From the NCBI GenBank assembly GCA_000004985.1, contig GG738859.1: a stretch of DNA of 64,000 nt, one strand, 5' to 3'. Source of the DNA: Naegleria gruberi (Eukaryota). This document shows positions 1,562 to 59,566 of this stretch, piece by piece; positions within the stretch are counted from its first letter, which is position 1; every line of letters starts with the position of its first letter. Position numbers and translations under genes: made by a program. The notes below the pieces were generated by a model, which was given only the letters and a program-made list of their open reading frames with translations, searched no databases and was not told the origin of the DNA.

Positions 1562-1612
1562 TTTTTAATTGAATTCACTCAAAAATTATTTGAAGTGCCA
1601 AATGTTATTTAT

Positions 1613-4036: not shown

Positions 4037-5214
4037 ATGATCTCATCATCAAATGCAAAAAACGAAGATAGTGCCTCTTCGGAACTTCCTCTCCCAACAC
4101 CATCATTAGATTCATCATTCAAAAAGAAGGTTGTGGAGAGAAATTGGCTCAACCAAGAATCTGAAGGAATTGATGCTTTAGCAAAGATTGAATTTCTTCA
4201 TACAATTCCAGGAGAGAAACAATTAAAATTTGTACCAAGTGTAAAGGGCATATTAACCAATGCTGTTCACAAAATGGCACTTCAACTCACTCAACAACAG
4301 GATGAAATTATCAATGAAGCAATGAATTTTTCTGCAACTAGTTTGATTACACAAAGTGGATCTAAAGCCATGCTCATGTCAAATGCTGTTGGAGCTGCGG
4401 AAGAACAACACAGAGGATCAATATTTGTTAGTTTGAGTAATGCATCTGATTTTGATCCGAATATGGGATTTGATGCTATTAAATCCAAGTTAACAAAGAC
4501 TAATAGTATTATCACAAAGGATATTCAGGAAATGTTTTTAAAATCAATTCCTCCTTGGAATTTTGTTACACCACACCATAACTGGAAAGTAAGACTACAT
4601 GGAGATAGAGCTGTTGGTAAAACAACTTTACAGAAGAGTCTTTGTAGAATGGGTAAGTGAAATAATTTTATTGTCAAATTTTTGACATTTGAAAGATACC
4701 AATATTGAACAACACAGAAATCAACATTGTGATACTGTTGGATCAATTACAACAAATACATTAATACCAATCAAATGTATTGATTCTGTGAAATGGATAG
4801 AGCTAGAAGTGATCGATGTTGGTGAAGGATGTGCTATCAATAATCCAATTTATAATTCATGTAAGTAATTTATATTAAGAATATCACTAATATACTTTGT
4901 TGGATCTATAACCAGACAATGTTAATGATTTTCATGCCCATCTAGTCTTATTTTCCATGGGACATTTTCAAAGCTTCAAGAATGCCAAAAACAAAATCAA
5001 ACAATTGAAAAAACAAACCAACAATATTATAGTTGTTGCAACTAAATCAGATGCTTTCCAAAATTTCCAAGTTACAGACATTGACATTGCCACTCTAGTG
5101 AAGGAATTTGATTTAAAGACTGCAGTATGTCTAGTCAATAGTCATGCTCAATTCGGATCTGAAAATAGTACCTATACCATTGTGGAAGAGTTGGCCGACT
5201 TACTTTTGGCCTAA
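4037..5214 (+). CDS. atypical small GTPase-like protein with ~175-aa N-terminal extension; 3 exons (4037..4652, 4696..4860, 4946..5214)
   Basis: Introns of 43 nt (gtaagtgaaat...tttgaaag) and 85 nt (gtaagtaattt...cactaat...catctag) restore one frame. G-motifs present: G1 GDRAVGKTT, G3 DVGEG, G4 TKSD (for NKxD), G5 NSHA. The track shows the exons as separate ORFs 4037..4660 and 4957..5214. Confidence 0.5.
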
Positions 5215-8300: not shown

Positions 8301-9204
8301 AGTAGACTCTCTGAAAAGGCAAAAAGGTAAACTCGAATCAAAAAAAGAGGATTATTGTAACAAATTAAAAGAATTCAGACGAAACATTAAAAAATTAAGC
8401 CAAATAATTAATGAGAAAGACCTTCAAATCTCTAGAAAAGTGCAAGATAAGGAAAAAATCCAAGAGGATATCGACGAGCTAAAGTTGTCCATTTCTAAAA
8501 TAGCACAAAGTAATATCTCTTTGAAAGTAGACACAAAACTAGACTTGGAATTAGAGGAAAGGAGAAGGCTCAAACTGATATCTGAGCTCAAGCACATAAA
8601 TTCAGAACTGGAAGGTATACAAGATAGTGTGGATAAAAATTGTTTAGAAAAACAATCAACAGCCAAGAAAAAGCTGAAATTCACTAATAAGAGGCTCAAT
8701 AGTATCAATCAAAGAATTGAGAGCCTCGAACTATTGGAGTCAAAATTTCTTACCTTACGATATGAATTGTTTCACAAGGTTATTTCCAAAATTAATGAGA
8801 ACCTCTCTCAAATATTCAGAGATTTGAATAACAACTCAAACTGCTACATTTCTTACTATGAAGACAAGAAGACATTATTTGAAAAGGGTGTCAATATTTA
8901 TTGCAAGTACGATTCAGAGTGGAAAGAGTTTAGTAAGCTGTCTGGTGGTCAGAAAAATCTGGTTTGTTCTGTTCTTTCTAAAGCGCTAATGAGATGTTTT
9001 TCAACCAGTATTTGTATCTTTGATGAATTATGTAGCAGTTTAGACACCATCAATGTAGAGAAATTAGCCAAGCTCATCAAAAGCAGCTCTCTCAAAACTC
9101 AGTTCATTTGCATATCATTCAAGTTTTACGAGAAGGCAGATCATATCATTGGAGTATACCACCAAAATGGTGTTTCTTGTACTGTCCCATTCTCTAATAA
9201 ATAG
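5324..9204 (+). CDS. SMC-family ATPase, condensin type (SMC2/SMC4-like), with probable acidic N-terminal exon (5324..5624) joined by a 47-nt intron (5625..5671) to the main exon (5672..9204)
   Basis: Main exon: LIIHSIEMKNFKSYKDNTLVGPF...CIIGSNGSGKSNIIDSICFVLG (Walker A). Long coiled coils. Hinge: GTIPEIYRITDQKYAVSVNS...VVVSSREVALKVVKFFENDRAGLVSCEIL. C-terminal LSGGQKNLVCSVLSKAL...ICIFDELCSSLD (signature plus Walker B). The first ATG in the main frame (5743) would remove the conserved N-terminal strand, arguing for the spliced 5' exon MPPSRFRKVIEDDEEE...YNRLLE (acidic, as in SMC4 N-extensions). The track start 5722 is TTG. Confidence 0.55.
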
Positions 9205-9207
9205 AAT

Positions 9208-12200
9208 TTATTGTACATTAGTTAGTAAATCCCTGATGTTGTACTTCAAGGAGAACAGGTTTTGTTTGTTCTCTATTAGCAAACCAAGACCATCCACCCA
9301 ATTATTGTAATCTCGCTCATCAAAAGTAACAAATTCCATCTTTTTCTTATCAGTAATAATTATGAGCGAGAATCCACCTTCAAGATTTTTGTTAGTTGAT
9401 TCTTTGCTCTTGGAAACCTTGTCAATATGTTCAACCTTCAAAAACGATTCTGGAACTTTCTTCTTATTGTCTCTTATTAATATTCTCGTAAACTCCTGCG
9501 ATAAGCATACGTGCCTTAATACATATTCCGTATTGGACTTTTTCTTATGCAATAGGGTACCATTACACATGAACTGGAATTTATCCAGAACAAATTGAAC
9601 ATCCTCCTTACTCAAAGGTTTTGAATTTGGCCCAAACAATTTATATTGTTTGGATGCCAATAATCTTGAAATGTTTGATGAGGCAACACCAACAACACCA
9701 CCATTTGATGGATTAGCAACGGTTGTGTTGGTAGAGGTATTGGTAGGCTTTTTAGGTGTTGTGGTTTGAGGAGCTTTTTGAGTGGTTTCAGTTGTGACAG
9801 GTGTTTGATCCTTTGTTATTTCTGGCTCATTTTCATATTGTTCTTCCTCACTACCCTCCAGTGAATTATTTGAGTTTTCAAGAGTATGATCATCATTCTC
9901 GTGTCCCTCGTTTTCTCTCTCTGCTAAATCTGTATAGAAATCTTCATCAAAGTCCTCTAAAGAATTAGGATCCTTATTTCTCATATACATGCTATAGTAA
10001 CCACTCTTAGAAACTGGAGGAGGATTTGATTTCTCGTTCTTACTTGGCTTGATCGATCTCATTATAATATCTGCCCCACTGTTCTTCACATTTTCTACTG
10101 CTTGTAATTTGAGCTCCAATCTATGTCTTAAATGTTGTCTCTGAGCTCTTACTTGTGATATTTTGCCTGTATATGATGCCTCGATATCTTCTAAGTTCTT
10201 CTTCATGGCAGCAAGTTGTTTCTTGAGTGTCATTGTTGAATTTGTCAAGTTATTTAATTCTTTCTCTATCACAGAAATACTCTTTTCCAAAGGTTTAGTG
10301 ACTGAATCATAATCAGCAATAGTTTCTTTTACATCCTCCTCTATTATAGCTAAAAGGTTATCAATTTCTTGAACTCTTGTTTCTATTGAGACTTTTTCTT
10401 TTGTAATTTCACTTTCGAATTGTTTCTCTTGATTTGCAAGACTTTCAATTTCCCTTTCAAGGTTTTCTTTTTGGTTTATCATTGAATCAATTTCTTCGTT
10501 CGCTTTTTCTAACTCATCCTGCTTTTCTATTTTTTGTTTGTTGATTACCTTGACTTGGCTTTCAACATTATTGCTGGCATCAACATATTGAGAAACCTTG
10601 TCACATTTGCTTGTATCTACAATTCTTTGGATAACATCTTTGATTTGATAATAAGATCCAACCAATGCCTCACACCTAACAAATCTTTCCTCTGTTAATT
10701 TCATTTCATCATCTGTGCAATTCTCGATTTTATCTGCCACTTGTTTCTCAACTTCCTCTTTCTCCTTGTTATAACTCTCTTCGATTTCGTTCAATTGCGA
10801 AACAATTGATTCTATTTCTTCGTCACACTCTTGTCTATCTCTGATTAATCCTCCTATTTGTTGCTCTAATTCACTGACAATATTTGAAAAATGACCAAGT
10901 CTTTCTAATTCTCCCCTTTTTCGCTCTGAGTTTTCCCGCTCAACTTCTCCAATTGAGGATGAGGATATCTTTTCTTTGGCAACCTCGACCAACTTTTTAT
11001 CTTTCTCAAGTTTATCCCTTATCATGGAAATGTACTCTTCTCTTTCCTTTGATCTCTTTCTCTCAATGTCTATAAATGATTTAGATTGGTTAATATAGAG
11101 TTTCTTGAATGTATTGACTATAGACTCATATGGCAATTTGAAACCGATTTGATCAAATTCTATTGCTTCCCCAAGAAAATTGGCATTGAATGAATCAACA
11201 CACTGTCTTAGTTGTTGGAAATCAAGTTCTTCAGAAGAAAGTTCTAAAGCATGAGCAAGAATAGCCTCTGTTTCCTCTATTTCAATAGACATGGTATGTA
11301 CATAATTCTCAAGAGCTGAGAGTTTTCTCAATTCATTTTGAAGGTTTTCAATCCCGCTCTCCTTCTTGGATACATATTCTTGTTTTGCAGATAGGTTCTC
11401 TTGCTCCAATTCCTCAAGAATGATCCTCTTTTCGTCTATTAACTCACAAACTTCTTGTCTCTTAGATTCTGCATATACTTTCTTGGAATTAAGCTCGTCT
11501 ACAGCTCTATTATATTCAAACTTCAAGTCTATCAGAAATATCTCTAAAGGAAACTTTTCTCGTAATCTTTCTGTCCTTAAATAAATTTCTTTTTCTCTCC
11601 TTATTAATGTTGTGAGATTCTTTTTTTGGTCATCAGTCAATGTAGATCCTTCCAAAATCATTGAATTAGTTGATATTTGGGCTAACCACTCTGATTCATC
11701 ATTCTCCAGCTCTTTCAGATAACAATCAATGTCACTAATTTTGCTTGCAATCCTCTCAATGGTTGCATTAACTTCTATTAGCTGGTCTCTCTTTTGAATC
11801 AATTTGTCATCAACAGGATTTCTCCTTAAATCTGTTGGGATAGATAGGAGTGAATCCCTCTCTTTGATTAAATTGTTCTTTTTTTGCTCGTTTTGGATTA
11901 TTAGGTCTTTCAATTTTTTCTTTTCTCTTGTTAAAATCTTCAACTCTTTATCTTGTTTTTTCTGTAAAGTGTCAATCTTTAAATACATATTTTCGAGAGA
12001 GGTTTGTTTTTCCTTAATAATTATCTTTTCTTTTTCACATTCTTCTCTCTTTTGATTTTTGATTTCTCTTTCTTTTTGATCAAAAATTGAGATGGCTTTT
12101 TCAATCTTAGAAATTTGAGAGCTAACATCCTCTAACCTGTCGCTAACTAGTCTTTGTCTGTCTAATTCTAATGGGTTGTGGTCTGGTTGTGGGGCTATTT

Positions 12201-12642
12201 TAATAGATTTTGGAGTTACTGACTTTGTTTGAGGAGGAGGTCGGGTTTTTTGTGGTGGAGAATCCTTTACTGCGACTGGTTTGGGGGTTTTCTTTGTAGT
12301 TTCAACTGCTTCAACCTTGTTACTTCTTTTAAATACAGGCTCTTCTTCGTCATCACTTCCATCAGAAAATCCAGCTTCCTCCAAATCCTTTTCAATAGCT
12401 TCAAGCAATGACCTTGATGGAGAAATAAGTATACTATCCTCATCTAAAAGTTGTTGAGCCTCCTTTAGAAGCACTTCCCTTTCACTAATTCCTTTCCGAT
12501 TAGAAGTTTTTTGTTTTTGGTTGGGTTCTTGTTGCCTCAACCTTTCCTTAAAATCAGCAATTTCATCCTTATCTGATGATGCAAGAGGAGACGATTGCTT
12601 TCCACCACCTCTCATTGATTTTGGTTGTTGTGTTGGTGGCAT
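9208..12642 (-). CDS. large coiled-coil protein (1144 aa) with C-terminal PH-like domain
   Basis: ATG at 12640-12642; continuous ORF. More than 800 aa of heptad-rich K/E/Q sequence. C-terminal region KQYKLFGPNSKPLSKEDVQFVLDKFQFMCNGTLLHKKKSNTEYVLRH...GGFSLIIITDKKKMEFVTFDERDYNNWVDGLGLLI resembles a PH/GRAM-like fold. Family not identified. Confidence 0.45.
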   Translation of the reverse strand: MPPTQQPKSMRGGGKQSSPLASSDKDEIADFKERLRQQEPNQKQKTSNRKGISEREVLLKEAQQLLDEDSILISPSRSLLEAIEKDLEEAGFSDGSDDEEEPVFKRSNKVEAVETTKKTPKPVAVKDSPPQKTRPPPQTKSVTPKSIKIAPQPDHNPLELDRQRLVSDRLEDVSSQISKIEKAISIFDQKEREIKNQKREECEKEKIIIKEKQTSLENMYLKIDTLQKKQDKELKILTREKKKLKDLIIQNEQKKNNLIKERDSLLSIPTDLRRNPVDDKLIQKRDQLIEVNATIERIASKISDIDCYLKELENDESEWLAQISTNSMILEGSTLTDDQKKNLTTLIRREKEIYLRTERLREKFPLEIFLIDLKFEYNRAVDELNSKKVYAESKRQEVCELIDEKRIILEELEQENLSAKQEYVSKKESGIENLQNELRKLSALENYVHTMSIEIEETEAILAHALELSSEELDFQQLRQCVDSFNANFLGEAIEFDQIGFKLPYESIVNTFKKLYINQSKSFIDIERKRSKEREEYISMIRDKLEKDKKLVEVAKEKISSSSIGEVERENSERKRGELERLGHFSNIVSELEQQIGGLIRDRQECDEEIESIVSQLNEIEESYNKEKEEVEKQVADKIENCTDDEMKLTEERFVRCEALVGSYYQIKDVIQRIVDTSKCDKVSQYVDASNNVESQVKVINKQKIEKQDELEKANEEIDSMINQKENLEREIESLANQEKQFESEITKEKVSIETRVQEIDNLLAIIEEDVKETIADYDSVTKPLEKSISVIEKELNNLTNSTMTLKKQLAAMKKNLEDIEASYTGKISQVRAQRQHLRHRLELKLQAVENVKNSGADIIMRSIKPSKNEKSNPPPVSKSGYYSMYMRNKDPNSLEDFDEDFYTDLAERENEGHENDDHTLENSNNSLEGSEEEQYENEPEITKDQTPVTTETTQKAPQTTTPKKPTNTSTNTTVANPSNGGVVGVASSNISRLLASKQYKLFGPNSKPLSKEDVQFVLDKFQFMCNGTLLHKKKSNTEYVLRHVCLSQEFTRILIRDNKKKVPESFLKVEHIDKVSKSKESTNKNLEGGFSLIIITDKKKMEFVTFDERDYNNWVDGLGLLIENKQNLFSLKYNIRDLLTNVQ

Positions 12643-12704
12643 TTTTTTGATAATGAATAACAGAAAAGTAAATTGGCGGGAATAATTATTTGGTGGATGA
12701 ATTT

Positions 12705-13424
12705 TTATTCCAATCCATAGTTTTCCTTAATACGTTTTCTAGTTTGTTCAATTTTTTCCTTCTTATAACGCTTCGAGTCATCTTCAGTAGTTGAAGCATC
12801 AGAAGAGGTTGGTTCATAAGAAGTTGGTTGAATGGTTCCAGGAGTCATAAATCTATTACTTGTTGAGTAACCAGTCATTGGTTGTTGGAAGTTTCTTCTT
12901 TGCATTTCATCTCTACGAATGATTTCTTCTGGATCGAAAATTCTACTAGCTCCATTTGAGTCATCTTGTTGGAATGATGGTTGTGTTCTTCTACGATCAG
13001 TAAGACAAGCATGTGACATGACGAAGAATACTGTAAAGATATATCCTACAAAGAGAGTGGTGTACATTCCAGAGACGAGAACGAGCAATACGAGAGCAAA
13101 CAAGCAAGTGAGAATGGCCAAATTTTTGGTAACCTTTATACGACGCAAAACAATGATGTTGTCAGACTTGTGATAGGCCAAGAAGAAGAAAAGACTTAGA
13201 GCAAGGATTAAAACAGGGAAAAATAAATAGGAGAAGAGCATTGGTAAACACAACATAATCATGTTGATGAGCAAATAATTAGTTTGGAAAAATGTAATAG
13301 AATCCAATATTCTTGCTCTAAGTGGTTGTTTGTGATTTCTAAGTGAAGTATAGGCAAGAAATTCTCTAAGAGGTCGAAGAGGTGGAAGGAGTGGCTCCAC
13401 GTCAATAATTCCTGGTGTGATCAT
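12705..13424 (-). CDS. PRA1 (prenylated Rab acceptor / Yip3) family membrane protein
   Basis: ATG at 13422-13424. LRPLREFLAYTSLRNHKQPLRARILDSITFFQTNY followed by two long hydrophobic hairpins (LLINMIMLCLPMLFSYLFFPVLILALSLFFFLAY...; LAILTCLFALVLLVLVSGMYTTLFVGYIFTVFFVM). This matches the PRA1 layout (LRPW..F...YYQSNY motif region). Confidence 0.6.
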   Translation of the reverse strand: MITPGIIDVEPLLPPLRPLREFLAYTSLRNHKQPLRARILDSITFFQTNYLLINMIMLCLPMLFSYLFFPVLILALSLFFFLAYHKSDNIIVLRRIKVTKNLAILTCLFALVLLVLVSGMYTTLFVGYIFTVFFVMSHACLTDRRRTQPSFQQDDSNGASRIFDPEEIIRRDEMQRRNFQQPMTGYSTSNRFMTPGTIQPTSYEPTSSDASTTEDDSKRYKKEKIEQTRKRIKENYGLE

Positions 13425-13715: not shown

Positions 13716-14537
13716 TTAATTTCCACCAGTGACACCTGAGATTGTACTTGTGAGAGATCTCTTAACAAAGAATGCCATGATCTGGTCCTTGGCACGACCA
13801 AGTGAGCTTCCTTCTTCATTGAAATGTCTATATAATAAGAGAACAATGATAACTTGATAAACTACATTGAATGCCCAAACAGCAGCCATAATAAAGCTAT
13901 AAATCATGGCAAATGTACCATCAGATTTAGTGATTAATTGCAAAGCTCCAACCAATCCACAAGCTCCCATTGATGGAACTCCAATAGCCATGAATAATGA
14001 AAAGATAATACCAACCAAATATGAAATGAATGCCAAAACATATCTTAAACGATCAGTTGACCAATTTGAAATTTGAAACCTACCTGGCAGAGTTCTTGTG
14101 TGCACAAGCACCATATGTCAACCAATATTGAGCAAAGAATGCAATAACTGGATAAAAGATAATATAACATCCACCAAGAGCAACTCCTCCAATATAATCA
14201 TAAACTCTACTAGTGACAAGAGCAATGATCAATCCGACAATGTTCAAAATTGCAATAATAATAAAAGCAATATATTCTCCCTATTTTGATGATGATTACA
14301 ATTATCATATTGTTAGATCACGATCACAATATAACCTACCAATCCCATCAAGGCTAAATACTTTTTTCTACCACAAGCAGAAATACTGTGATAAACTATA
14401 GGATAACATGGTGGAAAATTCTTAACTTTCTTTTGTTGTGGTTGTTCTACTTCCTCTTCAGAAGCAGCACTTTCATTGTCGTTTGTTTCCTCCGAAGCGG
14501 TCTGCTTCTTCCCGAAGAGACCTTTAACGTAATTCAT
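13716..14537 (-). CDS. SCAMP-like (secretory carrier membrane protein) 4-TM protein; 3 exons (14340..14537, 14084..14280, 13716..14043)
   Basis: Exon 1 ...KNFPPCYPIVYHSISACGRKKYLALMGL carries the SCAMP NFPP/CY motif. Introns are 59 nt (gtaggttata...gatctaacaa...caaaatag) and 40 nt (gtaggtttcaaa...cgtttaag); splice phases are consistent. The product is about 240 aa with four TM helices. There is no N-terminal NPF repeat region. Confidence 0.55.
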
Positions 14538-20885: not shown

Positions 20886-23521
20886 ATGTCGTTTTTAAAT
20901 CCTCCAGAGATGTCAATTATTGTTACTCCAAGTTTAGATGAAATAGAACAGAGTGATTTGGAGAGGAAACAATTGGAGCAAGAGGAAATTGAAGCTGAAC
21001 GACTTCTTCCCGAGAGTTTTGATTTCACCAAGCTGAAGAAGCAATTATCATCGGAAAATATTGCAAAGAAATCCTTCACTGTGGATCCTGAGCAATTGAT
21101 AAACACTGTAACAATGTTACTTGAGACAGTGGAAAAGCAGGAAAAGAATATAAGGTCACTAGCAAAAGCAGTCGCTCAAAAAAGCGATTTTTCATTGAGC
21201 AGGCAGTCATCATTTAATACCGGTGTTATGATTACTGATCCACCAAAGAAGGATCTTCCATCCTCCAGACCAACCACTCCAAAAGTTGTACATAAGGAAA
21301 CTGTTTTTGTGAGGGAGGATGATCCTTTTATGAAGAACCAAATCCATAATTTAAACAATGAGTTTGCTATAATTCAAGAGGAATATACTCAACATGAAAC
21401 AAGACTCACAGAAGTCGAGGCTATTGTTCATGAACAATTAACAGAGGAGAAAATGAAAACTGAAAAGAAAATTGATGAAGCTAAAGAAATGATTACAGTA
21501 CTCAAATTTGACAAGGAGGAGTTGAGAAAACAAATGGATCAATTGAGACTGGATGTAAAAAAGGGATTGGAGGAAAATATTGAGTTTTTATCAAACGAAA
21601 TCAAGACACATTTTGATATTTCGAATGAAAATTTAGAAAGGCTTCAAGATGATTACAACCAAAAAATATCAGCCGTAAATTCTGACTTGGGATCCAAAAT
21701 TGTGGACATATCAAATAAGGTGGAATATAATTTTATGATATTTAAGGAACGAACGGAATCTCAAAAAAATGAAATTGAAGAACTAAAGTTCAGACTGACG
21801 AAACTGGAAGAAAATTTACTGAAAAAGATGGAAACCTTGTCAGATAAAATGGATAAGAATTTTCGATTACTGGAGAAGGATACCCTGAAAACTAACTACA
21901 TAACCAATCTGTTGTACGACGTATTTCAGCTGGATAAACATCTAATCACTGACTTGAATGATACATATGTACAGGAAAAGTTTCAAGCTAAGGAAGATAT
22001 TGGAAAATATTCCAAAATGAAAAAGGAGAAGAACAGACAAGAGTACAGAAAGATGTATACAGACATGTTAATGACCACTCCATGTTTTAAAACAATATAC
22101 GACAATTCCACAAACATTGTAAACGAGTTGAGATGGGAAACCAAATTAAGAATGGACAGAGAGGGTGACAAGGTGTTAGAAGAGTTTACTGATATTCGAG
22201 AATGTATGAAACGGTTTGTGACATTTCCAGAAGTGCGAGCAGCAATTAACGAGAATGAAATAGTGAGACAAGTAGTCAATACTGTGGGTACTCATGAAAA
22301 ACATATTGATACAATATTTACAAATTTTTTACCGAGAGAAGAGGCTTGGGAAGCCCTCAAACAAAAAGCAGATGAAAAGAATGTAGAGTTGAAAGCTGAT
22401 CGAAAGATTGTCAATGCTCTATTTGACTATTTGAACGAGAAATTGAATACTATTCTTGGGAAAACATCTACAGAAGAAATGATGGTATCTATTAAAAAGC
22501 TTGAAGAGAAAATCAAAAGTAAGGCAGATAAGCAGGAACTTATAGAAGCCCAGCAACCAATTTACCCTCCAAATATAATTAATATCGTGCGAAAGGATAT
22601 TTCTACAGAGGATCTAGTGGTAGGAATGGGTGTGAGTCAACCATGTCTCATGGCAAAAGGAGAATCCGAACAAAGTCACTCCAGTTCGTACAGATGCCTT
22701 AGTTGCAGTCGACCACTCTCTTCCAAAACGCCTTCAACAGCACCATCCGGTTCTCCTCCAAAAAGACAAAACTATTTAACTAACTTTGATCCTCTTCCTG
22801 TTCAAGCCTTAAGTGGAAATGAATCTGCTAGAGGAAAGTTGGGAACTACGTTGGGAGATCTTCAACAACAATTTCAACAACAACTTCAATTACAAATCAA
22901 TCCAAACACTAGCATTCAATCTGATAGTCCAAATACAAGTCCAAAGAAGGGAGAAAAAGAAAAACCAAACCTTATTCCACCAAGTAGCCCATCTGACTTT
23001 TTCGAAATACCCAAACTAAATTTGAAAAAAGTAATGATATCTGCAGAGTAAGTTTCTTAACACATTTTAAACTCTTACATTTAACAAGAATGGAAAATCC
23101 AATCTTTAAATATACTATTAAGAGCTCAGGTCGAAGTGCAGAAGAAGAATATGAAATGGTATCAGCAAGACGAGACAATACTGACCTTGATAAACCTCCT
23201 TCACAACTTCAAAATCAAAGAAAATCTCCAGACGATATGAGACCTAAACCACCAAAGAGTGCACCTCAAGGAGGGCAGAATAATTTTATGAGATATTCTC
23301 TGAAGAGTAATTTGGATCTTTCGAATAAAGTGCCAGGAACTGCAAGAGAAAAAGAACAGGAGAAAACATCTTCAGTAATGCCACACTCTGCAAGGCCAAA
23401 TTCTGCTAAAGAGTACAGGCTGAGAAGGAATGAAGGTCCTATACTTGTTGTAAAGCCAGCAACTGCAGCTCTGAAAAATAGACTCCCAAAGCTAAATGCA
23501 AGTCAAGCTTTAATTAAATAA
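20886..23521 (+). CDS. coiled-coil protein (~864 aa); 2 exons (20886..23047, 23089..23521) joined by a 41-nt intron
   Basis: ATG 20886. The 721-aa track ORF ends ...MISAE at a TAA that lies inside a gtaagtttcttaacacattttaaactcttacatttaacaag intron (23048..23088). Splicing gives ...MISA-E-MENPIFKYTIKSSGRS... in frame with track ORF 23090..23521. The middle is heptad-rich. There is a Cys cluster YRCLSCSRPL. No family assigned. Confidence 0.45.
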
Positions 23522-23596: not shown

Positions 23597-25267
23597 ATGA
23601 AAAGAAGTGCTTCTGCATCTTGTGAAGGAGAAGAGCCTTCCAAGAAAACAAAACAATCTATGGAGCAAAACTTTATTTCGGAATTGGAAGAGATTGTAGA
23701 ATATTGTCGTGAACAATTCGAAAAAGAATCGGAAGACCCAGATTTCATTGCTGCAGAAATTGGAAATATTCAGAGGAAATTTTACGATTTGCAGAACAAG
23801 TATGAAAAATTCAAGACAATAATTTTAAAAGAGACTTTTACTGACTTGGAAGACTTGGAAACTATGTACAATGAAGCTGATGCAATGCTCAATGAGGCTA
23901 AAGAAGCATTGGCTTCATTTATTGCTTCTGAGGAAAAAACAGAAGGTGAAATCGAAACAGACGAAAATATTGAAAATTTCATTCCACTACCTGAGCTAAA
24001 TGAAGAAACAGAAGTAATACCATTTGAAAGAAGTGAATTAAGAGTAGAAAATATAGAACCCATCCCACTCTTAACATCAAGAAGTTGTTACATTTGTCAG
24101 AGACCCATTGAGAACTCCCCTGTAGTCTGTAAATATTGCTCTAACGCTTGCCATGGCCAATGCTGTGATAAACCAACAATACTGAGAGGAGAAGATACTA
24201 TGATTTGTGAAGTGTGCAGTTCAATCGAGACTGAAGGAGAACCTAATTTTTATTCACTGATAATTAAATCAAAGAATGGAAATGTTACACATGTTAATGA
24301 TATTGGTAATCAACTGAAAGGATTAAGCATTGATAAGTACAAAATCAAATGCCCAAAGTGTCAAGAATTAGTTGCACTAAAAGATTTAAATAGTCACACT
24401 GGAAGAAAATTTGAGTTTGATAAGTTTAGTGACTACCCTTTTGTTCCTTTTTCAGACGAGAAGAATAGAGCCGAAATATCTAGAGTTTTGATTGTTTTCA
24501 ATATCAGCAAAAAGACATTAACCAATATTTGTGAAAGGTACGAAAAAAGGATTGGTCCAGTGGAAATCAATGACATGTATTTAAATGATTCATATGGTAA
24601 TTTTTCAATGCACAAAGCTGTATTCATAACCTTAGAATCTGAAAAGCAAAGTTTTACACTTGCATTGTTTCTGAGCTCGTATTTAATAAGGAAGAATGGG
24701 TAAGTTTTTTTCACGTTTTAGCTTGCAATTTCAATGCAATTTAGTACTGATATCAATGTTCATCCTGTTGTATATTTTTGGAAGTCAAAAGCATTTCAGA
24801 TAGTTATTCCAAGCAAACACGAAATGGAGCTTGTCATACCACCAAAATTGGATGATTTTATTGAAAGAAAGTGGCAGGTAGCTTCAGACACTTCCAATAC
24901 CTTTTATGTAGTATTGAAGGATGTGGCTTATTGTTTTGCTCTTTTGAATACTGTACACGGATTAGTATTGGATAATAAGCAAATTGCAAAAGTTAAAGCA
25001 ATTCAAAATCCTGACACAGACAAGAGGACTGTATTAATTCTAAATATTTATTACGCCTCTATAGAACAATTCAAATATTTCATACTTGATTGTAATACTA
25101 GCTTTGATTTTGATTGGGACGTAATGGTTGAGGAGGATGGATGCCAAATGTTGGAGGACGAAAATTCAATTTCTATCAAGTTTCAATCTGAAGAAATTGC
25201 AAAAGCATTTGTAAATGATTTTAATGATTCCTTATTTAACGAACATCATTTACAAATGTTTAATTGA
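23597..25267 (+). CDS. zinc-finger protein (~543 aa); 2 exons (23597..24699, 24745..25267) joined by a 45-nt intron
   Basis: ATG 23597. Cys clusters CYICQRPIENSPVVCKYCSNACHGQCC...MICEVCS (PHD/RING-like) and KCPKCQELVALKDLNSHTG (TRAF/C2H2-like). The intron gtaagtttttttcacgttttagcttgcaatttcaatgcaatttag (24700..24744) joins ...LIRKNG to TDINVHPVVYFWKSKAF..., which continues as track ORF 24734..25267. Confidence 0.45.
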
Positions 25268-27317: not shown

Positions 27318-30300
27318 TTATTCATCATCAGAATCGTCTAGCAATAAATCATCAACAGTTTTAACCACTCGTGTTGGTTTCTTCTGGGTTGGAATGACGA
27401 CTGCAGTTGATCTTTTACGAGATGAGGTTGGGATGGCAGTTCCTGTAAAGCTACCAATTGCGTTTCTTCTCGTTTTAATAACCTTTTGTGTACTTGTTGC
27501 CGAGGAGACTGATACAGTTGAGGGTGGCTCAGAAATTGGAGAAACAGTTTCAACAGCTGGAGCACTTGTTGGCTTTTCCTCTTGTCTTTTCTTAGCATAT
27601 GAAGTGAGTAAAGAACCCAAATCATCGTCATCATCATACTCAACTTGATCGATTTTTGACTTTTCTTCTTTAAGAATTGATTTTACCATGTCATCATCTT
27701 CATCTTCAGAGCTTGAATCATCAGTTTTGGATTTCACATTTCCATTGGTTGCTGTTGGTGGCTTCACTTGGGCTGATGTGATTGGTTGTTGAGGTAGAAT
27801 AGTTTCTTCATCATCATATTCAGTATCTTCATTCATTTCCTGTTGTTGCTGAAGGGCTAAGAGTTCTTTAAGCACTCGCTCAGTATCATCTTCATCATCT
27901 TGTTCAATTGCTGGACTTGGAGTTAAAGCAGGTGACATGACTGCAATGTCCTTATTTGGTGATGAAAAATTAACTGTTGAGCTAGGAAGAGCTGGCTTTG
28001 GCTGTTCTTGTTGTACTTCTGGAACCACTTGTTTTGGTACAGGTTCTGGTTCAGGTACTGTGGATTGGTTGTGGAGTAGTATTGATTATTGGCTCAACAA
28101 TTTCTTTTGTTTCAGGAATAAATATTTCTGGTTCCTCCTTGGTGGCTGTAACCTCCACTACTGGAATTACAGGAATAAAGACTTGTTTTTCTGCTTCTTT
28201 TGGTTGTGGAACAATTACTGGCTCGGCATCTTGTGTATCCTTAAGAGTTTCAGGAATTAATTCTGGTGTGGTTACAACTTCAATTGATGGCAATTCTGTA
28301 GTAATTAATTTTTCAATAACTTGTTCTGGAATAATTGGTTCCTCTTGTTTTGGTTCTTCCTGAGGCATAGTAGAAATAGACACAATTGGAATTTCAACAA
28401 TCACTTCCTCAGGTATTGTTGGAGCTGTTACAATTTCTGGCTCACTAACAATTTCACTTTTAACTGGTTCATCCACAACAGAAATAACAGGAGTGCTTTC
28501 CACTACTACAGGTTCAGGAATAGTCGACTCAGTTGGTGTATTCTCTGTTTCGGCGACAATTTCACTTTCAGGAGGCACAATAACCTCTGGCTCTTTAACT
28601 TCTTGTTCAATGATTTTGTCTTCTTCTGTTGGTATTATTGGCTCTTCAATATAAACTGGAGTGTGAGCTGCTACTGGAGGTAAACTTTCTACAATTGGTG
28701 TTTCTGTAATTATTGGAGTTTCATCTTGTACTTTAGGCTCCTCAATAATTACTGGAACAATCAACCCAGGAATTAATGATTCAACAGATGCAATAGGAGT
28801 AGAGATTACAGTTTCAGAAGGTTTCTCCTCAGTTGTGGTAACTGAAGGCTCTTGAACAATTACCTCTTCTTTGACAGCCATTGGTGAAGTGTTTTGCTCT
28901 GGTAGTGGGCTTATTGGTGGAGTAGATACATTTGGTGATTCAGTTTTAACAGAAATATCTTGAGTTGGTGTTGCAGTAATAACAGGAGTGACAGTCAACT
29001 CATCGCCATAACCCTCATCGTCATAGGATTCGACTTTTGATGGCTCAACCGGTGTAGAAACCACAGACTTTGGCTCAATTACAAATTCCTCTTTGTGATC
29101 ACTGAAAGCAACTGCCTTCTTTTTCTTTGATGAGATTACGAATGATTTTCTTGTAGTTGGTACTGTAGTGGTTGGTGAGCTAGCGACTGGTGTGGTTGGT
29201 GTTTCCTTATTGTTTGGAACTTTCTTGATATTGGAAATTACCTTCTTTGATCCTACAGTAATTGGTTCAATGCTTGGAGTAACAGCATCCTCAACGATTG
29301 GGGATGAAACTGTTGTTTCTTCTTGAAGTGGAATTTGAGGAGTTGGCGTCTCTTCCTTTGTTGGAGTGTTGGTTTCGAATGAGCTTTCGTCTAAATGTTT
29401 TGCTGGTACATTTTGAGTATTTGATTCCTCCTCTTCGTCAGTAAGATCAAAATCAGAATCCTCATCTTTCTTTGGTTGAGTTTGTGGTTCTTCAACTTTC
29501 TTCAATGAGGCAAATGTTGTAGAGCTAGTAATTGGTCCAAATTCAATTACATCAGAAAGTGTAGAAGCAAGAAAATCTCTTTCCTCTTGTGGAATTCTCA
29601 TAGAACTTCTATTCTTAATTTGAGCAACATCTTGATCCTTCTTTTTGAACATTTTGAAAACTGACTTGGCTTTTGATCTTCCTTTTGGTTCATCAGTTGC
29701 CAAATTAATAATTGGCATTGAATTGACTTTTTCATGATGTTTAGGTGTTGAAGCTGGCTTGCTAGATTTCTTACTTCTTGGTGTCTCCTCATCTCCACTG
29801 AATGTTCCAAAGTCAGAATCTGAGCTCTGTCCAGGATCATTGAATGGTGCAATGACTTTCAACTTTTCTGGAGTAACTCCTGGTAATAAAGTTTCTTGTT
29901 CATCGAAAGAATCAAAATCAGAGTCAGATCTCGCAGCACTAACAACTGTAACTTGATTTTCAATATTTTCTTCATCAACAATTGATTGTGTTCCAATAAT
30001 AGAGGTTGCCATTGCATTTTGTAATGCAGATGAAACTTCAGGTGTTTCTGTTTCTATTTCAGGTGTTTTAGGTGTTGTTGGTTCAGGTGTCTTTTCTTTA
30101 ACAACGATTGGTGCTGATACGCTTGTTGGTTGTACCACAGGTGGTTTCTCAGGTGTAGCTTTGATTTCTTCATCTACCTCACCACTCTTAGCAAGTAATT
30201 CCTTTAGAATATCATCCTCGTCATCGTCATCTTCAATTGGTTCTGGCTTCTTTGGTTCAACAGGTGGCTTTTCAGGTGTTGCTTCTTTTTTGGTTGCAGC

Positions 30301-33279
30301 AACTACTACTGGAACAAGAATAGGAGTAAGATTGAGTGGATTAGTAGTAGCTGCTTGTTCTGCCTTCTTTGGTTCATTGAATTGAGTTGCTGAACGATCT
30401 CTTTCACCGGTAACATTTGAGGTTGCTAAAACGGTTGTAGTTGGACTAATGAAAGTTCTTCCTCTAGATCTGAGAACACTCTCCTTTCTCTTCTTTGTCT
30501 CTGCATCATCGTTCTTTTCGTTCAGAAGGGATTCCAATAAATCGTCGTCATTGAGATATTTCTGCATGTTGGTTTCTGGAATTGGAACTGAAAATTTCTT
30601 TTCAGGAGGGGTTGAATTTGCTTCTGGTTGTTTAACAGTATCCTTTCTTCTAATTATATTAATGGTAGCTCTCTTATTTATCATGGAGCCGACAGCATCT
30701 CCAGCTGTCTTTTCCAACTCTGATCTCAAAAAGACTCCCTTATTTCTCTTTCTATTACTGTTGATATTTTGAATTTCTTCATCTGAGATTTTGAGTGAGG
30801 TTTCATTCTCTACCTTTTCTAATTCTTTCAATTCGGCAATTTTAGCTGAATAGTGTTGCTTAATATTTCTGTGTCTCTTTTGGATTCTACTTCTCTTGTC
30901 AGAGTCGCTGGCACTATCTGATTTTTCTTGCTCTCCATACTTGAAAATTGATTGATTGACCACCAAGGAAACATTCAAGAAATCACTTCTTGGTTCCAAA
31001 TTCAAAGATTTGGCAATCAGAGCATCGCTTCCATATTTAGTTCCCTTTGCCTTGATAAATGAAAGTCCTCCCACTTCAGTAGCTCCATACTTTTCAAAGT
31101 TTGGAGTGTCTGCAATACCAAACACTGGATGGACTTCAAGAACTGGCATTTGTTTGTTGCCCAATCTTGAAATTCTTTTCAAGTCCATACTTGCGAAAAA
31201 GTCCTGTTGATGATTTTTAGCTCTAGGGGTTGCTGCAACCATGTCTTCACTAGAGGAGGGATCACTCTTCTTCTTTATCTTTCCAAGTAAAAAGTCGCTG
31301 AGACTATTCATGGCCTTGTTTTGTGAAGAATTCTTCTTGAGCTTGTTCATAAAATCTTCCAATTCTTGCTTGTCCTTATTTTGAGTTGTCTTCTTGATTT
31401 GTTCAGTGAGGTTTTGCTTTGGTGTCAGAGTAATTTGTTGGTTCTTTTCATCGAGATAGCCCATTTCATTTAGTAAACTTAACCACTTAGTACCACCATC
31501 ATTTCTCAATTGGCCTAAGAGTTCAATAACCTTTGTTGACCTTTCTTCAAGTTCTGGAAATTCTTCCTTGACTTTCTTTGCATCTTCTTCTGGATTGGAT
31601 TGAACTTTTGACGGAGCATTCTTTGAATATTCAGGAATTTCATTGAAAACTCTTTTCTTTTTCTTTTTAGATTTCTTATTCTTTCCTTCCTTCTTTTTCT
31701 TCTTCTTTTCCTCTTTAACTTGTTTGACTTCTTCTTGGATGAGTGATTTGGAACTGCTACTCTTCTTGATTTGTTTTCTCAAATCCACAAAGTTATCATT
31801 TTCAATATCAGCATCACTACCATCAGTGTCACTCATACTGCCATTTTGCGAACTGGTATCAGTGGCTGTTGAAGAACCTGTTTGTGAGAGATTGAGAATA
31901 TCCATGATGTCCTTCTTCAGATATTTGACACCATCTAGAACAAATTCTTCACTAATATTTCTTCTGAAATAGGACAGAATAGTTCTGTGGTAATTTCCAT
32001 ATCTACAAATTTCCATGTTACCACTCAGTTGAAGATCATGAAGCTTGTTGAAAAATTGCAATTGCTTGATTTCTTGCCATGCCGTTAATTGATTAGATCT
32101 AAGATTGATCCGTTTAAGATGAGAACTAGAATTGGCTGTTATTCTCCTAAGATTTTCAGCAACATCTTGATTGAGTTGGTTATTCTCCAAGTTAATTATT
32201 TCTAATTTAGGGCAAACAACACCATGGAATGAATCTAAGCTTTCCAATTCATTGAATGCCAAGTTGAGTTCGATTAAATTTGGTAAATTAATAGTGATAC
32301 AATTCTTTTCCTCTGTGTCTTTCTTCCTTAAAATAGTGTGTAAATTGTTGTGTGAAAGATTTAAAACCATCAAATGGCTCAACACGAAATGCTTTCCCAC
32401 ATCATTGAAAGCATCAAAAATTGAAATTTCCAAATTGGTATTTTTCAAAATGAAAACCTTCAACTTGTTCACTAACAAATCAATAAATGCTGGTTTAGAA
32501 AATATTGGTGGAACCTCTCCCTTCTTAAACCAAACATTGGAAATGTTCAAAACCTCCAAAACTTTGAAAACATCTTTCGACTTTTCGGAGAATTCATTCT
32601 TTTGTTCTCTATCATCTGGTTCCAAGAAAATATCAAACAGTAATTGCTCGTCAATACTAATCAAATTTAACACTCTCAGTGTCTCAGAAAAATCATGGAA
32701 AATATTTCTTTCAATCCTCAAAAATTGTGAATCCAAAACTGTCAATCCTTCCAAATTGATTGTCTTGAATGCTGACTCTTCTATTGAACATGTTGATATT
32801 CAAAAAATTGAATCCAATTACTTACCTGTTGTCTCATCGTTCGTAATAAATTTTCCTTTAATATACAATAATCTTGTAAAATTTGATCGAATAATCAAAT
32901 GTTTCAAGTTGTGAAAAAGTGTCAAATCAACCTCAACATCTTCAGTTTTGTTTGATTGCATTGGACCTTTCTTTGTCTTGTTTGTTTCCAATTGTAAAAC
33001 TCGAATATTCTTAAAAATGTAAATAAATCTCTCAAAATCAGTATTAGTCAACTCGGTAATAAATTCATTATCAACAATTTGCTCAACAAACCAAGAGAAG
33101 AAACTCTTTTTTTCTTTCTGTTTTCGTTTAAATTCCTTAACTCGAGCATTTAAAATTCTCAAAATTTTGTATTTCATTTTCAAAATCTTTGAATTTGGTA
33201 CTTTATGATTGACCATTCCAAATAAAGAATCATAACGAATTTTGTTCATCAAGTGATGAAAATAAATAGTACTAATCAT
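27318..33279 (-). CDS. giant (~1950 aa) protein: N-terminal leucine-rich repeats, poly-Lys tract, very long P/E/V/I/T-rich PEVK-like region, acidic C-terminus; at least 2 exons plus a frame disruption near 28030-28060
   Basis: Exon 32826..33279 (ATG 33277-33279). A 45-nt intron 32781..32825 (gtaagtaattggattcaa...gttcaatag) leads to exon 32780..~28052 (track ORF 28051..32754, whose M is TTG). LRRs: LEVLNISNV, LNLSHNNLHTIL, LNLAFNELESLDSF, INLENNQLNQ, INLRSNQLT, LQLSGN. Then KKKKKKEGKNKKSKKKKKR. Then about 900 aa of PEVK-like sequence (PEVIVPPESEIVAETENTPTESTIPEPVVVESTPVISVVDEPVKSEIVSEPEIV...). Track ORF 27318..28028 (GTG start, different frame) continues the same composition (TVPEPEPVPKQVVPEVQQEQPKP...) and is probably the C-terminus of the same gene. 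Confidence 0.5.
28052..30900 (-). repeat. low-complexity coding repeat region (PEVK-like P/E/V/I/T-rich degenerate tandem repeats) inside the giant gene
   Basis: The translation is dominated by short degenerate units (EPxV, PEVI, TPxxE, VVxS). The nucleotide sequence is a degenerate repeat of gaa/cca/gtt/att/aca codons. It generates many spurious antisense ORFs in the track (e.g. 27998..28363, 28321..28683, 30161..30385). Confidence 0.5.
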
Positions 33280-33435
33280 TGGCAGGAGTGGATTTTCATC
33301 GAGTGCAAACGGTGATTTGTCTTGTTAATATTTCAAATCATCATTTCAATAAAATCATCATCACACCATGTAAAAACAGTTGTGTTGTTATAATAATTTT
33401 GTTGTTTTTTGATAATTAGAGACATTAAAAACAAA

Positions 33436-33846
33436 CTACCTACTTTCTTCAATGTATGCTCCGTTGCTTTGTAAATACTTTTCAACCCATTCCGAATGAA
33501 TTTTCTTCCTCCTTTCCCACCATCTTTCAATTATTGATTTTTCCACTTCCAAAGTTTCCTTTCTAGAATTTGTTAAATTATTGTTGCTGTTGTTATCGGT
33601 GGGATTTGTTTGGTTATTATCATAATCATTCATTAGAAAGGGGTCCACACCACAAACTGTCAAAAAATCATTAGTGATTCGGAGAGGTTCTTTCGTATTA
33701 TTATTTGAAGGTGTGGTATAGGGATATAGGTGAGTCACATTCATGAATTGATGAGCACGAGTAAGTAGTTTTTCACCGTGCTCTATTAGATAGAGTGAAA
33801 AAAGTTTTAGGATGTCTTCTGCATCCACGGCTTTGGCAGATGACAT
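33436..33846 (-). CDS. 136-aa ORF (N-rich, WW..ERRKK); either a separate small gene or a 5' exon of the downstream giant gene
   Basis: ATG 33844-33846. It ends ...AYIEESR-TAG, where GAAGAAA|gtaggtag is a possible phase-1 donor. An acceptor ...attaacaag|AC... 40 nt before the giant gene's ATG would be in frame (N-K-S-P-F-A-L-D-E-N-P-L-L-P-M-I-S...). The implied intron is ~124 nt, longer than the others. Confidence 0.3.
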   Translation of the reverse strand: MSSAKAVDAEDILKLFSLYLIEHGEKLLTRAHQFMNVTHLYPYTTPSNNNTKEPLRITNDFLTVCGVDPFLMNDYDNNQTNPTDNNSNNNLTNSRKETLEVEKSIIERWWERRKKIHSEWVEKYLQSNGAYIEESR

Positions 33847-39683: not shown

Positions 39684-41273
39684 TTATTTCTTCTTATGAG
39701 AAAGGAGCATGAGGGAAGCAACAAAACTTAAAATCATCTTCTTCTTAACTTCAACAATATCTTCCCACAATAAGAAAACAACAGCACCAATCTTTCTGGC
39801 AACTGAAATGGCATACTTGGCATTTTGTTCCTTATCATCAGAAATCATTTCAAGGTTACAAGATTGTGGTGAAATAGCGTGACACAAATTGATCAAGAAA
39901 ACACCATCAGTCAATGATGAATCTTCAAATGATGAAATAGTAGTGTGACCAACAGTCTTGTTAGCCCATTTGAGAACGTCATCTTCACTAACAGCCTTAC
40001 CACCACCAAGATTTTTCAAAGTATCAAGGAGTGAAATCTTCATCAATTGCCAGACGACAGCCAAAACAAGTTTCTTGTTACCATCATTAATATCCTTTCC
40101 TGAAATGTTATTGACCTTAACACCAATATGTTCAGAAGCAGCAACACAAACATTACAATTTCCAACAGCTTGGAAAACATTTCTTGGATACTTTTCAATC
40201 TTCTTTCCTTCAAGACATCCTGGTTTAATCTTTTCCAAAATTTCAGCAAACATTCTTCCATCACGCAAATCATCGAACAAGTTAGCAACGTTAACTCCCA
40301 AACTTTGAATCCAGAAAGTGAAAGCTCTTTCTTCTCTAGTACCTTCACCATCCAAATCCAAAAGATTTGCATAATCAGTCATATCCTTAGGAGCTTCAAG
40401 AGCTGGCCTTGTGTTGAAAAGGTTGGCAACAAAGGCAAGGTTGAGCTTTGAATTACCCTTAACAACATCAAGTGGTTTGACGAGTTTTCTACAATCAATC
40501 TTGGCAGCTTCATTCAACATCTTATCAGCTCTCTTTTCCATATCAGATTCATTCAATGGTGATAAAGTACAACATTCTGGAGCAATTTGCTTCAAGAGAC
40601 GAGTATAAATTTCAGAGTCTGTAACATCGGATGAAAAGTTGGTGATTTTTCTTGATGATCCACTCTTATCCATATGATAGTTAACCCATCTCATAAGAAT
40701 TTCTTCAGTTGGTAATTTAATAAAGCTTTCCAAAGATTCACCTTCCTTCAAGAGGAGAACCAATTCAGGATGGTGCTTGATTGAAATATCCTTAGTAAGA
40801 CATCTCTTAAGAACTTGCCACAATAATCCTAGGACAATGTGTGGTAGACCTTCTTGAATACTGGTTCTGGTAATGTTAACAGTTTTACAACCAATACCAG
40901 CAGCAGAGTTGATGGCCAATTCCAAGTTTTCATTAAGTTGCCATGGATTCAAATTTCCCTTCATGTTAATGACACGTTCGTCAATAGTTTGAGGAGAAGC
41001 AATATTAATTAATTTACTATTAACAATTACCAAAAAATCATCTCTGTTTAAAAAAACCTACCAAAAGATGATACCATCCTTAAGTTTATCAAACAAAGCT
41101 TCACTGTGAATAGGAAGCTTTGACTTGACATCCTTATCCTCTCTAAGTTCGTTGGAAATGTATTCAGAAAAACTTTCGACTTCAGCCTTATCGAATGAGT
41201 GAGTACCAGTTACACCACTCACTGAGGTAGTATTTTCAGAACGACTGGTAAGCTTTGCTTGTGTTGAGGACAT
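39684..41273 (-). CDS. fimbrin/plastin-type actin-bundling protein (four CH domains) lacking the N-terminal EF-hand headpiece; 2 exons (41062..41273, 39684..41016), 45-nt intron
   Basis: Exon 1 MSSTQAKLTSRSENTTSVSGVTGTHSFDKAEVESFSEYISNELREDKDVKSKLPIHSEALFDKLKDGIIF. Intron gtaggtttttttaaacagagatgattttttggtaattgttaatag (41017..41061). Exon 2 CKLINIASPQTIDERVINMKGNLNPWQLNENLELAINSAAGIGCKTVNI...GLPHIVLGLLWQVLK.... The spliced junction DGIIFCKLINIASPQTIDER matches human plastin [20 protein letters not shown]. The unspliced sequence has an in-frame TAG. Confidence 0.8.
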
Positions 41274-57424: not shown

Positions 57425-59566
57425 TTATTTTTCTTTTCTCTTGGCCATCTTTCTGTCGAGGGCACCCAAAACTTTCTTTCTCAAACGAATATTCTTTGGT
57501 GTAACTTCAATAAGTTCATCTTGTTGGATATAAGTCAAAACTTCTTCCAATTGGAATACTCGAGGTGGAGATAATCTGATAGTATCTTCCTTACCTGCTG
57601 CTCTCATGTTAGTCAAGTGTTTTTCCTTACAAGGATTAACTTCAATATCATTTTCTCTACTGTGTTCACCAACAATCATACCTTCATAACATTCAGCTGA
57701 TGGATGAATGAAAATATTACCTCTAGCTTCAAGTGGACCTAAAGCATAAGGTGTACCTTTACCACCTTCAAGTGAAACCATGACACCCTTTCTAGTCTTT
57801 TCAATAGGTCCCTTGTATGGTTCATAATCACTGAAAATGTGAGTGAGCATACCTTCACCACGAGTATCAGTTCTGAATTCAGAAGCATAACCAATGAGAC
57901 CACGAGTTGGAACTCTATAAAGTAATTTAGCCTTAATACCATCAACCTTATAATCAATCATTTCACCCTTTCTCTTAGCAAGCTTTTCCATACATTGAGC
58001 AGCCAAACCATTATCAACATCAATTGTAACTTCTTCAATTGGTTCCAAAATATCATCCTTACCACCACCTTCAACATCCTTAAAGATGACTCTTGGAGGA
58101 GAAACTTGGAATTCATAACCTTCTCTTCTCATATTTTCAATAAGTACAGCCAATTGCATTTCACCACGACCCATAATTTCAAAAGCTTCACCCATTGGTT
58201 TAATTGTTAAACTGACGTTCATTTCAGCTTCCTTCAATAAACGAGCACGAAGTTGAGTTGCAGAACATAATTTACCTTCCTTACCAGCCAATGGACTGTC
58301 ATTGACAAGGAACATTACAGACAAAATTGGAGGATCAATTGGTTTAGCTTCAATTGGAGTTGTAACTTGTTTAACATCACAAACTGTATCAGTAACACTG
58401 GCCTTTGAAATACCAGCAATGGATACAATAGAACCAGATAAAGCTCTCTTTACAGGTGTTCTTTGCATACCAATTCTTTGCATGACTTGTAAAACTTTAC
58501 CTTCTTCTAAAACTTCACCAGTTCTACTCATAACTTTAACTCTATCACCTGGTTTAACGGCACCACCATACATTTTACCAGTAACAATTCTACCGAAAAT
58601 TCTATCATAATCAACTGTACTAACAAGCATTTGGAATGGACTTGCAGCAGATGGTCTAACTTTTGGACATGGAATATGTTCCAAAATTGCTTCAAAGATT
58701 GGAGCTGTATTCTTTCTTTCATCCTTTTCAAAATCTTTAACTGCCCAACCACTCTTGGCACTGGCATATAAAATTGGGAAATCCAATTGTTCATCATTAG
58801 CTCCCAAATCAATAAATAAGTCATAAACTTCATTTTCAACTTCACCTCCAATACGAGCAGTTTCACGATCTGATTTGTTGAAAATAACAATTGGTTTCAA
58901 TCCATGTTCTAAGGCCTTTCTCAAAACAAACTTTGTTTGAGCCATAACACCTTCAGTAGCATCAACAAGTAAACAAACACCATCAACCATTGACATGACT
59001 CTTTCCACTTCACCTGAAAAATCAGCATGTCCTGGAGTATCAACAATATTGATAATATATTCACCCTTATATTGAACTGATGTCAATTTAGCCATAATTG
59101 TAATACCTCTTTCCTTTTCCAAGTCCAAACTATCCATTGTACGTTCTTCAGCATCATCTTTAATTGTACCTGTTTGTTTTAATAAACAATCAATCATTGT
59201 TGTTTTACCTGTATCGACGTGAGCAATAATTGCCAAGTTACGAATATTCTTTACTGTGACAAATCCTTCGGAATCAGCTTCAGATTCAACTTGAGGAATA
59301 TCTAAAATATTGATATAATTGGATCCAGATAAATCAACTTTGGAATCATGTTGACGTAAATTTGAGGAGAAGAAACGTTCTTGTTGTTGGGAAAGTAATC
59401 TTTGTAAAAGAGAATGTTTTTGGAGGAGATTAGAGTGCTCAAAGTGGAACCCTTGTGAAAAAACAGATGAGGCAGCCCCGATACAAGGTTTTGACTGTGA
59501 TGATGAAGAAGCAATCTTCCTGACGATACGACTACCACTGGCGACAAGGTTTTTAGAGTTGAGCAT
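57425..59566 (-). CDS. typA: BipA/TypA translational GTPase (bacterial type) with ~110-aa N-terminal organellar targeting-like extension
   Basis: 713 aa, single exon. [29 protein letters not shown]...[83 protein letters not shown]... plus the BipA-specific C-terminal domain (...[42 protein letters not shown]...). The N-terminal [27 protein letters not shown]... is Ser/Arg-rich and presequence-like. Confidence 0.85.

Follow-up and report, generated by a model that had tools for sequence, protein, structure and literature searches.

A frame break in the last exon of a conserved Naegleria gruberi leucine-rich repeat protein gene, most likely a draft-sequence artefact

The stretch of DNA considered here, hereafter the window, comprises 64,000 nucleotides (nt) of contig GG738859.1 in the assembly GCA_000004985.1 of Naegleria gruberi, strain NEG-M. 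It has a G+C (GC) content of 33%, is gene-dense and contains short GT..AG introns; the 41 Mb N. gruberi genome as a whole also has 33% GC (PMC8296547). On the minus strand of the window two long open reading frames (ORFs) meet in different frames close to position 28054. Judged from their reading frames and from their orthologs in other Naegleria species, both ORFs are halves of the last exon in a single three-exon gene of ~2,119 codons. The place where they meet is an unremarkable break of the reading frame within a single exon of a Naegleria leucine-rich repeat (LRR) protein gene, which is conserved and uncharacterised, and the break is most likely an artefact of the draft sequence.

The upstream minus-strand frame is without stops over 1,582 codons (32799..28054) and ends ...ACT ACT CCA CAA CCA ATC CAC AGT ACC TGA, where the TGA occupies 28053..28051. 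From 28085, just past a TAA at 28088..28086, the +1 frame is open as well; it begins with the residues SILLHNQSTVPEPEPVPKQVVPEVQQEQPKP and continues for 255 codons until the TAA at 27320..27318, so that both frames are open over 32 nt (28085..28054). A preliminary description of this DNA, made from the letters and a list of ORFs, had pointed to a frame disruption with two ORFs meeting in different frames, and this is indeed what lies here, with some adjustment of details. The stop codon that it placed at 28052-28054 is real and sits one base away; the second frame, given as open from ~28090 and 236 amino acids (aa) long, is open with the start and length stated above, 236 aa being the count from its first GTG at 28028, just as the 1,567 aa of the upstream ORF in the list are counted from the first TTG. 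What was described as a giant gene is exon 3 of a gene with three exons.

The two off-frames of exon 3 have a stop rate of 0.086 per codon and no open run longer than 87 codons, and an open run of 255 codons, as in the downstream frame, is therefore not due to chance (P ~1e-10 from this stop rate). The coding composition also carries on over the junction. The summed fraction of proline, glutamate, valine, isoleucine and threonine (P+E+V+I+T) is 0.68-0.72 in the last 430 and the last 60 aa of the upstream ORF and 0.65 in residues 10-35 of the downstream ORF (0.72 before vs. 0.65 after the junction). The identical repeat composition ascribed to the two ORFs in the preliminary description is thus a fair account of the sequence next to the junction, and does not extend to the remainder of the downstream ORF, an acidic and serine-rich sequence with a P+E+V+I+T fraction of 0.39.

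A search with the conceptual full-length protein returned only two relatives, each ~50% identical over the first ~990 residues, namely N. fowleri FDP41_011860 (1,923 aa, from a 90%-identity cluster of 4 member sequences) and N. lovaniensis C9374_000912 (1,449 aa). The junction made by removal of intron 1 is spanned by a single BLASTP alignment to the N. fowleri protein (query 2-988), and intron 1 has a counterpart at this position in both orthologs. In N. fowleri the two 5' introns are both present, and the last exon, which starts at aa 337, reads as an unbroken ORF through to the stop codon (L001 7237..11997). The order of conserved motifs is common to the three species: FVISS..K.V.F, (E)(T/S)YDD..Y.DE, SEDED..(I/V)KS(I/L)LKE, DD..L..LL(T/A)SY.K.R and finally R(V/M)V.(S/T)V(D/E)DLL. 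Of these, FVISS..K.V.F and YDD..Y.DE are found in the upstream ORF of the window and the other three in the downstream ORF. The similarity of the downstream ORF to the N. fowleri C-terminus was marginal in BLASTP (E 0.068), and a two-sequence profile built from the N. fowleri and N. lovaniensis C-termini was needed; against this profile residues 125-254 of the downstream ORF were aligned by hhalign with a probability of 95.9% and an E-value of 5.2e-9, colinear to the protein end. The orthologs are without an intron between the conserved motifs that flank the break, and the second N. lovaniensis model (see below) crosses them as a single ORF. It follows from the colinearity with the orthologs and the hhalign match that the two ORFs are one gene, ancestrally without an intron between the flanking motifs. 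The coordinates of this gene and of the features around the break are listed in Table 1.

Table 1. Features of the LRR protein gene and of its frame break (window coordinates)
Feature	Position	Strand	Remarks
Exon 1	33444..33846	-	ATG at 33846..33844, MSSAKAVDAEDILKLF...; N-terminal end matched in alignments by the orthologs of N. fowleri and N. lovaniensis
Intron 1	33321..33443	-	123 nt, GTAGGT...AACAAG, GC 0.24
Exon 2	32826..33320	-	From ORF continuity and ortholog alignment
Intron 2	32781..32825	-	45 nt, GTAAGT...CAATAG, GC 0.24; orthologs with an intron at the same place
Exon 3, part in the upstream frame	28054..32780	-	LRR region, conserved middle regions, then ~430 aa rich in P/E/V/I/T, ending ...TTPQPIHST
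Zone open in both frames	28054..28085	-	32 nt; must hold any single indel; codon scoring favors an extra base at ~28054..28068
Premature TGA closing the upstream frame	28051..28053	-	
Candidate 40-nt GT..AG segment	28019..28058	-	Judged a pseudo-intron; probable coding sequence, encoding VPEPEPVPKQVVPE in the downstream frame
Exon 3, remainder in the +1 frame	27321..28053	-	Through the last codon
Conserved C-terminal block	27324..27713	-	Downstream-ORF residues 125-254: SSEDEDDDMVKSILKEE ... DDDDDLGSLLTSYAKKRQ ... RVVKTVDDLLLDDSDD
True gene stop, TAA	27318..27320	-	Homologous ...VEDLLNE(D/E)... motif at the end of the orthologs

In the predicted product, an uncharacterised protein, a conserved N-terminal region with probable leucine-rich repeats is followed by a long low-complexity tail, and the C-terminus is conserved and acidic. 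The LRR matches are weak and lie around residues 435-575 of the conceptual full-length protein; Pfam LRR_4 (26.8 bits vs. a cut-off of 27) and LRR_8 (25.8 vs. 27) both fall below the gathering threshold, weak LRR matches are found in PDB too, and the N. lovaniensis ortholog is named "Leucine-rich repeat-containing" in UniRef. The P/E/V/I/T-rich part is a lineage-specific expansion of ~430 aa (68% P/E/V/I/T, ~28054-29350 on the minus strand) between the motifs YDDEGYGDE and SEDEDDDMVKSILKEE. Across 27321-30700 (minus strand) acidic-plus-LL motifs are repeated (DDDLLESLLNE, DDILKELLAKS, ERVLKELLAL, DMVKSILKEE, DDLGSLLTSY, and VDDLLLDD), as are SDSDFxxF motifs (SDSDFDSFD, SDSDFGTFSGDEE, and DSDFDLTDEEE), and several of them are kept in the orthologs of N. 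fowleri and N. lovaniensis. Their sequences are suggestive of short linear motifs that would serve interactions from within a disordered tail. For neither ORF was an N. gruberi protein model found in protein collections of 5.8 billion clusters and 1.84 billion representatives; a neighbor on the same scaffold, the BipA-like GTPase ORF 57425..59566, is present there with 100% identity over 713 aa (N. gruberi D2VA03_NAEGR). The gene may be unannotated in the N. gruberi reference proteome.

At the break we find what an indel would leave behind, i.e., ORFs on the same strand that overlap in different frames, colinearity of both with one orthologous protein, and a coding signal that is continuous after a 1-nt correction. 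On this evidence the frame break is an indel, either one extra base or two missing ones, within 28054..28085. Deletion of any one base in ~28054..28068 gives a peptide in character with its surroundings, e.g., ...TTPQPIPVPEPEPVPK... or ...TTPQPIPVPEPEPVPKQVVP..., and deletions further upstream give poorer ones; the most likely position, as far as codon usage can tell, is near CCAATCCACAGTACC, at ~28054..28068. That an indel is to be preferred over an intron had been proposed earlier, and the proposal agrees with the orthology that makes this one gene, with the coding-like character of the segment in question, with the lack of a plausible alternative intron and with the intron-free state of the orthologs at this place. 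There is hardly any tandem repeat at the DNA level, only a 12-nt unit in 2.5 copies at 28031..28060. Slippage during replication of this unit would not explain a frameshift, the period being divisible by three, and this reading was rejected.

The two frames could also be joined by splicing. The string gtacctgaacc...ggttccag (28058..28019) is 40 nt long, i.e., 3n+1, and its removal joins the frames between ...PQPIH and KVQQEQPKP.... For comparison we used a set of 13 local introns picked by ORF continuity, two of which were verified by ortholog alignment; it replaced an automatic "tight-fit" intron finder that used ORF geometry alone, was too noisy and picked up antisense shadow ORFs. Eleven of the 13 were partly recognised by their donor, which makes the donor statistic somewhat circular, and the composition and coding tests are independent of the donor hexamer. 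The N. gruberi donor consensus is GTA(A/G/T)GT, and the local donors are GTAAGT (seven), GTAGGT (four), GTATGT (one), and GTAAAT (one). In the candidate donor, GTACCT, positions +4 and +5 are both C, while C occurs at neither position in any local intron and G is found at +5 in 12 of them. The GC content of the candidate is 0.47, compared to 0.21-0.33 for the local introns, and it contains 17.5% T and 27.5% C (hand count) vs. 39% T and 10% C in intron composition. Stops are present in at least two of the three frames of every local intron and in all three frames of nine, whereas the candidate has no stop at all in the downstream frame, and this frame stays open for another 27 nt upstream of it. 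When an intron Markov model was scored against the codon usage of 18 long ORFs of the window, the intron-vs.-coding log-likelihood per nt was -0.371 for the candidate and +0.03 to +0.29 for the 13 introns, and among 1,330 GT..AG segments of comparable length that lie inside long ORFs, 99.5% were less coding-like than the candidate. The segment is therefore much as first described with respect to its higher GC content, its weak donor and a repeat-like translation that favors an indel, since what it encodes in the open downstream frame is in the local protein composition. Its length, which had been called atypical, is not: local introns measure 40-123 nt, several of them 40-47 nt, 14083..14044 has exactly 40 nt, and length alone is no argument against an intron. 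Many introns of the window are in fact 40-59 nt long with a GC content of 0.21-0.33 (4653-4695, 5625-5671, 14044-14083, 23048-23088, 24700-24744, 32781-32825, 41017-41061, and others), and in short introns with a GTAAGT or GTAGGT donor the GTAA or GTAG often provides the in-frame stop of the upstream ORF.

If 28058..28019 were a real but atypical spliceosomal intron, or an "exitron", its removal would give a full-length protein with the junction peptide ...PQPIHKVQQEQPK. The GT..AG ends, a length that restores the frame exactly and falls inside the local range, speak for this. We nevertheless consider it extremely unlikely, given the donor, the base composition, the coding-like score, the open downstream frame and the orthologs, and the segment is judged, from its sequence properties, to be a coding-like pseudo-intron rather than an intron. 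Moreover, 299 frame-restoring GT/GC..AG pairs, the candidate included, occur within 600 nt; one such pair is therefore expected by chance and carries no evidential weight, and neither an intron-like score nor a consensus donor is seen in any of the 299. A different way of making the full-length protein from the sequence as it stands would be a programmed +1 ribosomal frameshift of the antizyme type at ACC-UGA-A, in which the U of UGA is skipped and reading resumes with GAA CCA GAA..., to give ...PIHST-EPEPVPK... (expected junction peptide ...PIHSTEPEPVPK...). Such a shift would enter the downstream frame exactly, and antizyme genes and Euplotes offer known cases of a frameshift at a stop codon. 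The recognised +1 shift sites are UCC-UGA-U, or AAA-UAA/UAG, and the site found here differs from these. No stimulatory RNA structure was found in the 91 nt past the TGA, where the minimum free energy is -10.4 kcal/mol (z -0.24) and 86 of 200 shuffled sequences fold at least as well. Nor is the arrangement conserved, as N. fowleri reads straight through and the break in N. lovaniensis is located elsewhere and goes in the opposite direction, and the site itself lies in non-conserved low-complexity sequence of the lineage-specific expansion. Programmed frameshifting is accordingly hard to credit and stands at the very bottom of the explanations considered. That the assembly is correct and that a full-length protein is made either by this +1 frameshift or by regulated "exitron" splicing at GTACCT is, even with the two pooled, a very small possibility. 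RNA sequencing of N. gruberi exists, ~829 million 75-bp read pairs for NEG-M from Kennard et al. 2025 being described in bioRxiv 10.64898/2026.08.18.745565.

The indel within 28054..28085 could be an error in the sequence or a mutation in the organism. We give a probability of about two thirds to a consensus or assembly error in the Sanger draft. In this case a consensus base-calling or assembly error would have left one extra base in the assembled zone (or removed two), shifting the frame by +1 into the premature TGA; the true sequence would be expected to be one base shorter, e.g., CCAATCCCAGTACC, the cell would make one continuous protein, and nothing biological would take place at the junction. 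The genome paper of 2010 reportedly describes an N. gruberi draft of ~8x Sanger coverage. NEG-M is listed as the Sanger-sequenced reference strain (PMC9928731, table 1). By our own prior estimate, consensus indels in a draft Sanger assembly should be commoner per gene than segregating loss-of-function indels. The alternative is that NEG-M carries a genuine mutation, either a heterozygous allele that entered the assembly or a change newly arisen in the laboratory strain, with a protein truncated at ...TTPQPIHST and deprived of its last ~245 residues including the conserved acidic C-terminus. The break is, after all, present in the sequence as given, and it is situated in a fast-evolving, low-complexity, lineage-specific expansion where constraint is probably weak. 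On the other hand the downstream ORF is undecayed, with 255 open codons and with motifs kept in three species, so that any real frameshift must be either very young or heterozygous. We regard a genuine mutation as unlikely, although far from negligible. Several observations count against an error and should be set beside this estimate. There are no ambiguous bases (N) or gaps near the junction, the window as a whole contains no Ns, and the context of the junction is neither a homopolymer nor another one typical of errors. Naegleria is described as a heterozygous diploid (PMC9928731), and a real frameshift allele could have been the one assembled. No independent N. gruberi copy of the junction was found in metagenome scans with a 28-mer beside the junction or with a protein-guided search of 341 aa spanning it, and phmmer with the downstream ORF gave 0 matches in the full library, with no model or transcript-derived fragment showing the junction. 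Look-ups by exact protein sequence gave nothing for this gene, and nothing either for the neighbor identical to D2VA03_NAEGR. The choice between an error and a real allele is thus made from prior expectations for a Sanger draft alone.

The main value of these observations is for annotation. The corrected model has three exons and ~2,119 aa, and reunites the gene with a conserved C-terminus that is currently detached. They also serve as a caution that a frame-restoring GT..AG pair is expected by chance near a frameshift, and that gene predictors should not "repair" the latter with a fake mini-intron; this applies most strongly to a genome in which real introns can be only 40-60 nt long. Should the frameshift be true, NEG-M would have a gene that is conserved in Naegleria as a truncated allele, which would be of minor, strain-specific interest, and should recoding or an exitron be true, the block of C-terminal motifs would be attached conditionally. 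Elsewhere in the window, the ORF pairs at 12600-12830 and 1500-1700 (both minus strand) were considered as further frameshifts and rejected, being adjacent genes on the same strand; the distance from stop to next ATG is ~35-70 nt in these places, in keeping with a compact genome.

A break of a similar kind is seen in N. lovaniensis, where the ortholog is annotated on PYSW02000011.1 as two adjacent genes, 6001-10576 (1,449 aa) and 10609-12291 (560 aa). The break (L002 ~10540-10640) amounts to one base in a GGGG run, at ...GACAAGGGGTAGATGCC..., and one G added to the run gives ...KGVDAK..., as in the GKKGVDAKQ of N. fowleri; the probable cause is a homopolymer error, the assembly being a PacBio one. 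As an example of the split gene models that single-base indel errors produce in draft eukaryotic assemblies, the N. lovaniensis pair (C9374_000912 and the 560-aa model) resembles the N. gruberi locus in the early end of one ORF, the continuation in another frame of the same strand, the colinear halves and the undecayed downstream half. It differs in that a base is missing, from a GGGG run in PacBio sequence, whereas N. gruberi has an extra base (or two missing ones) outside a homopolymer in Sanger sequence. The orthologs of N. fowleri and N. lovaniensis, which are uncharacterised leucine-rich-repeat-containing proteins, agree with the N. gruberi gene in both 5' introns, in a single long last exon and in the order of the acidic and LL-containing C-terminal motifs. 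Unlike N. gruberi, N. fowleri has only ~50 aa in place of the ~430-aa P/E/V/I/T-rich expansion, and it is inside this expansion that the frame breaks. With canonical short spliceosomal introns of N. gruberi the candidate segment shares its GT..AG ends and its 40-nt length, and it departs from them in donor hexamer, base composition, coding potential and the gene structure of the orthologs. Antizyme-type +1 frameshifting at UGA, finally, is matched by the +1 relation of the two frames and by a shift that is possible exactly at the stop, while the conserved shift site, the downstream structure and the ortholog conservation of that system are absent from the N. gruberi site.

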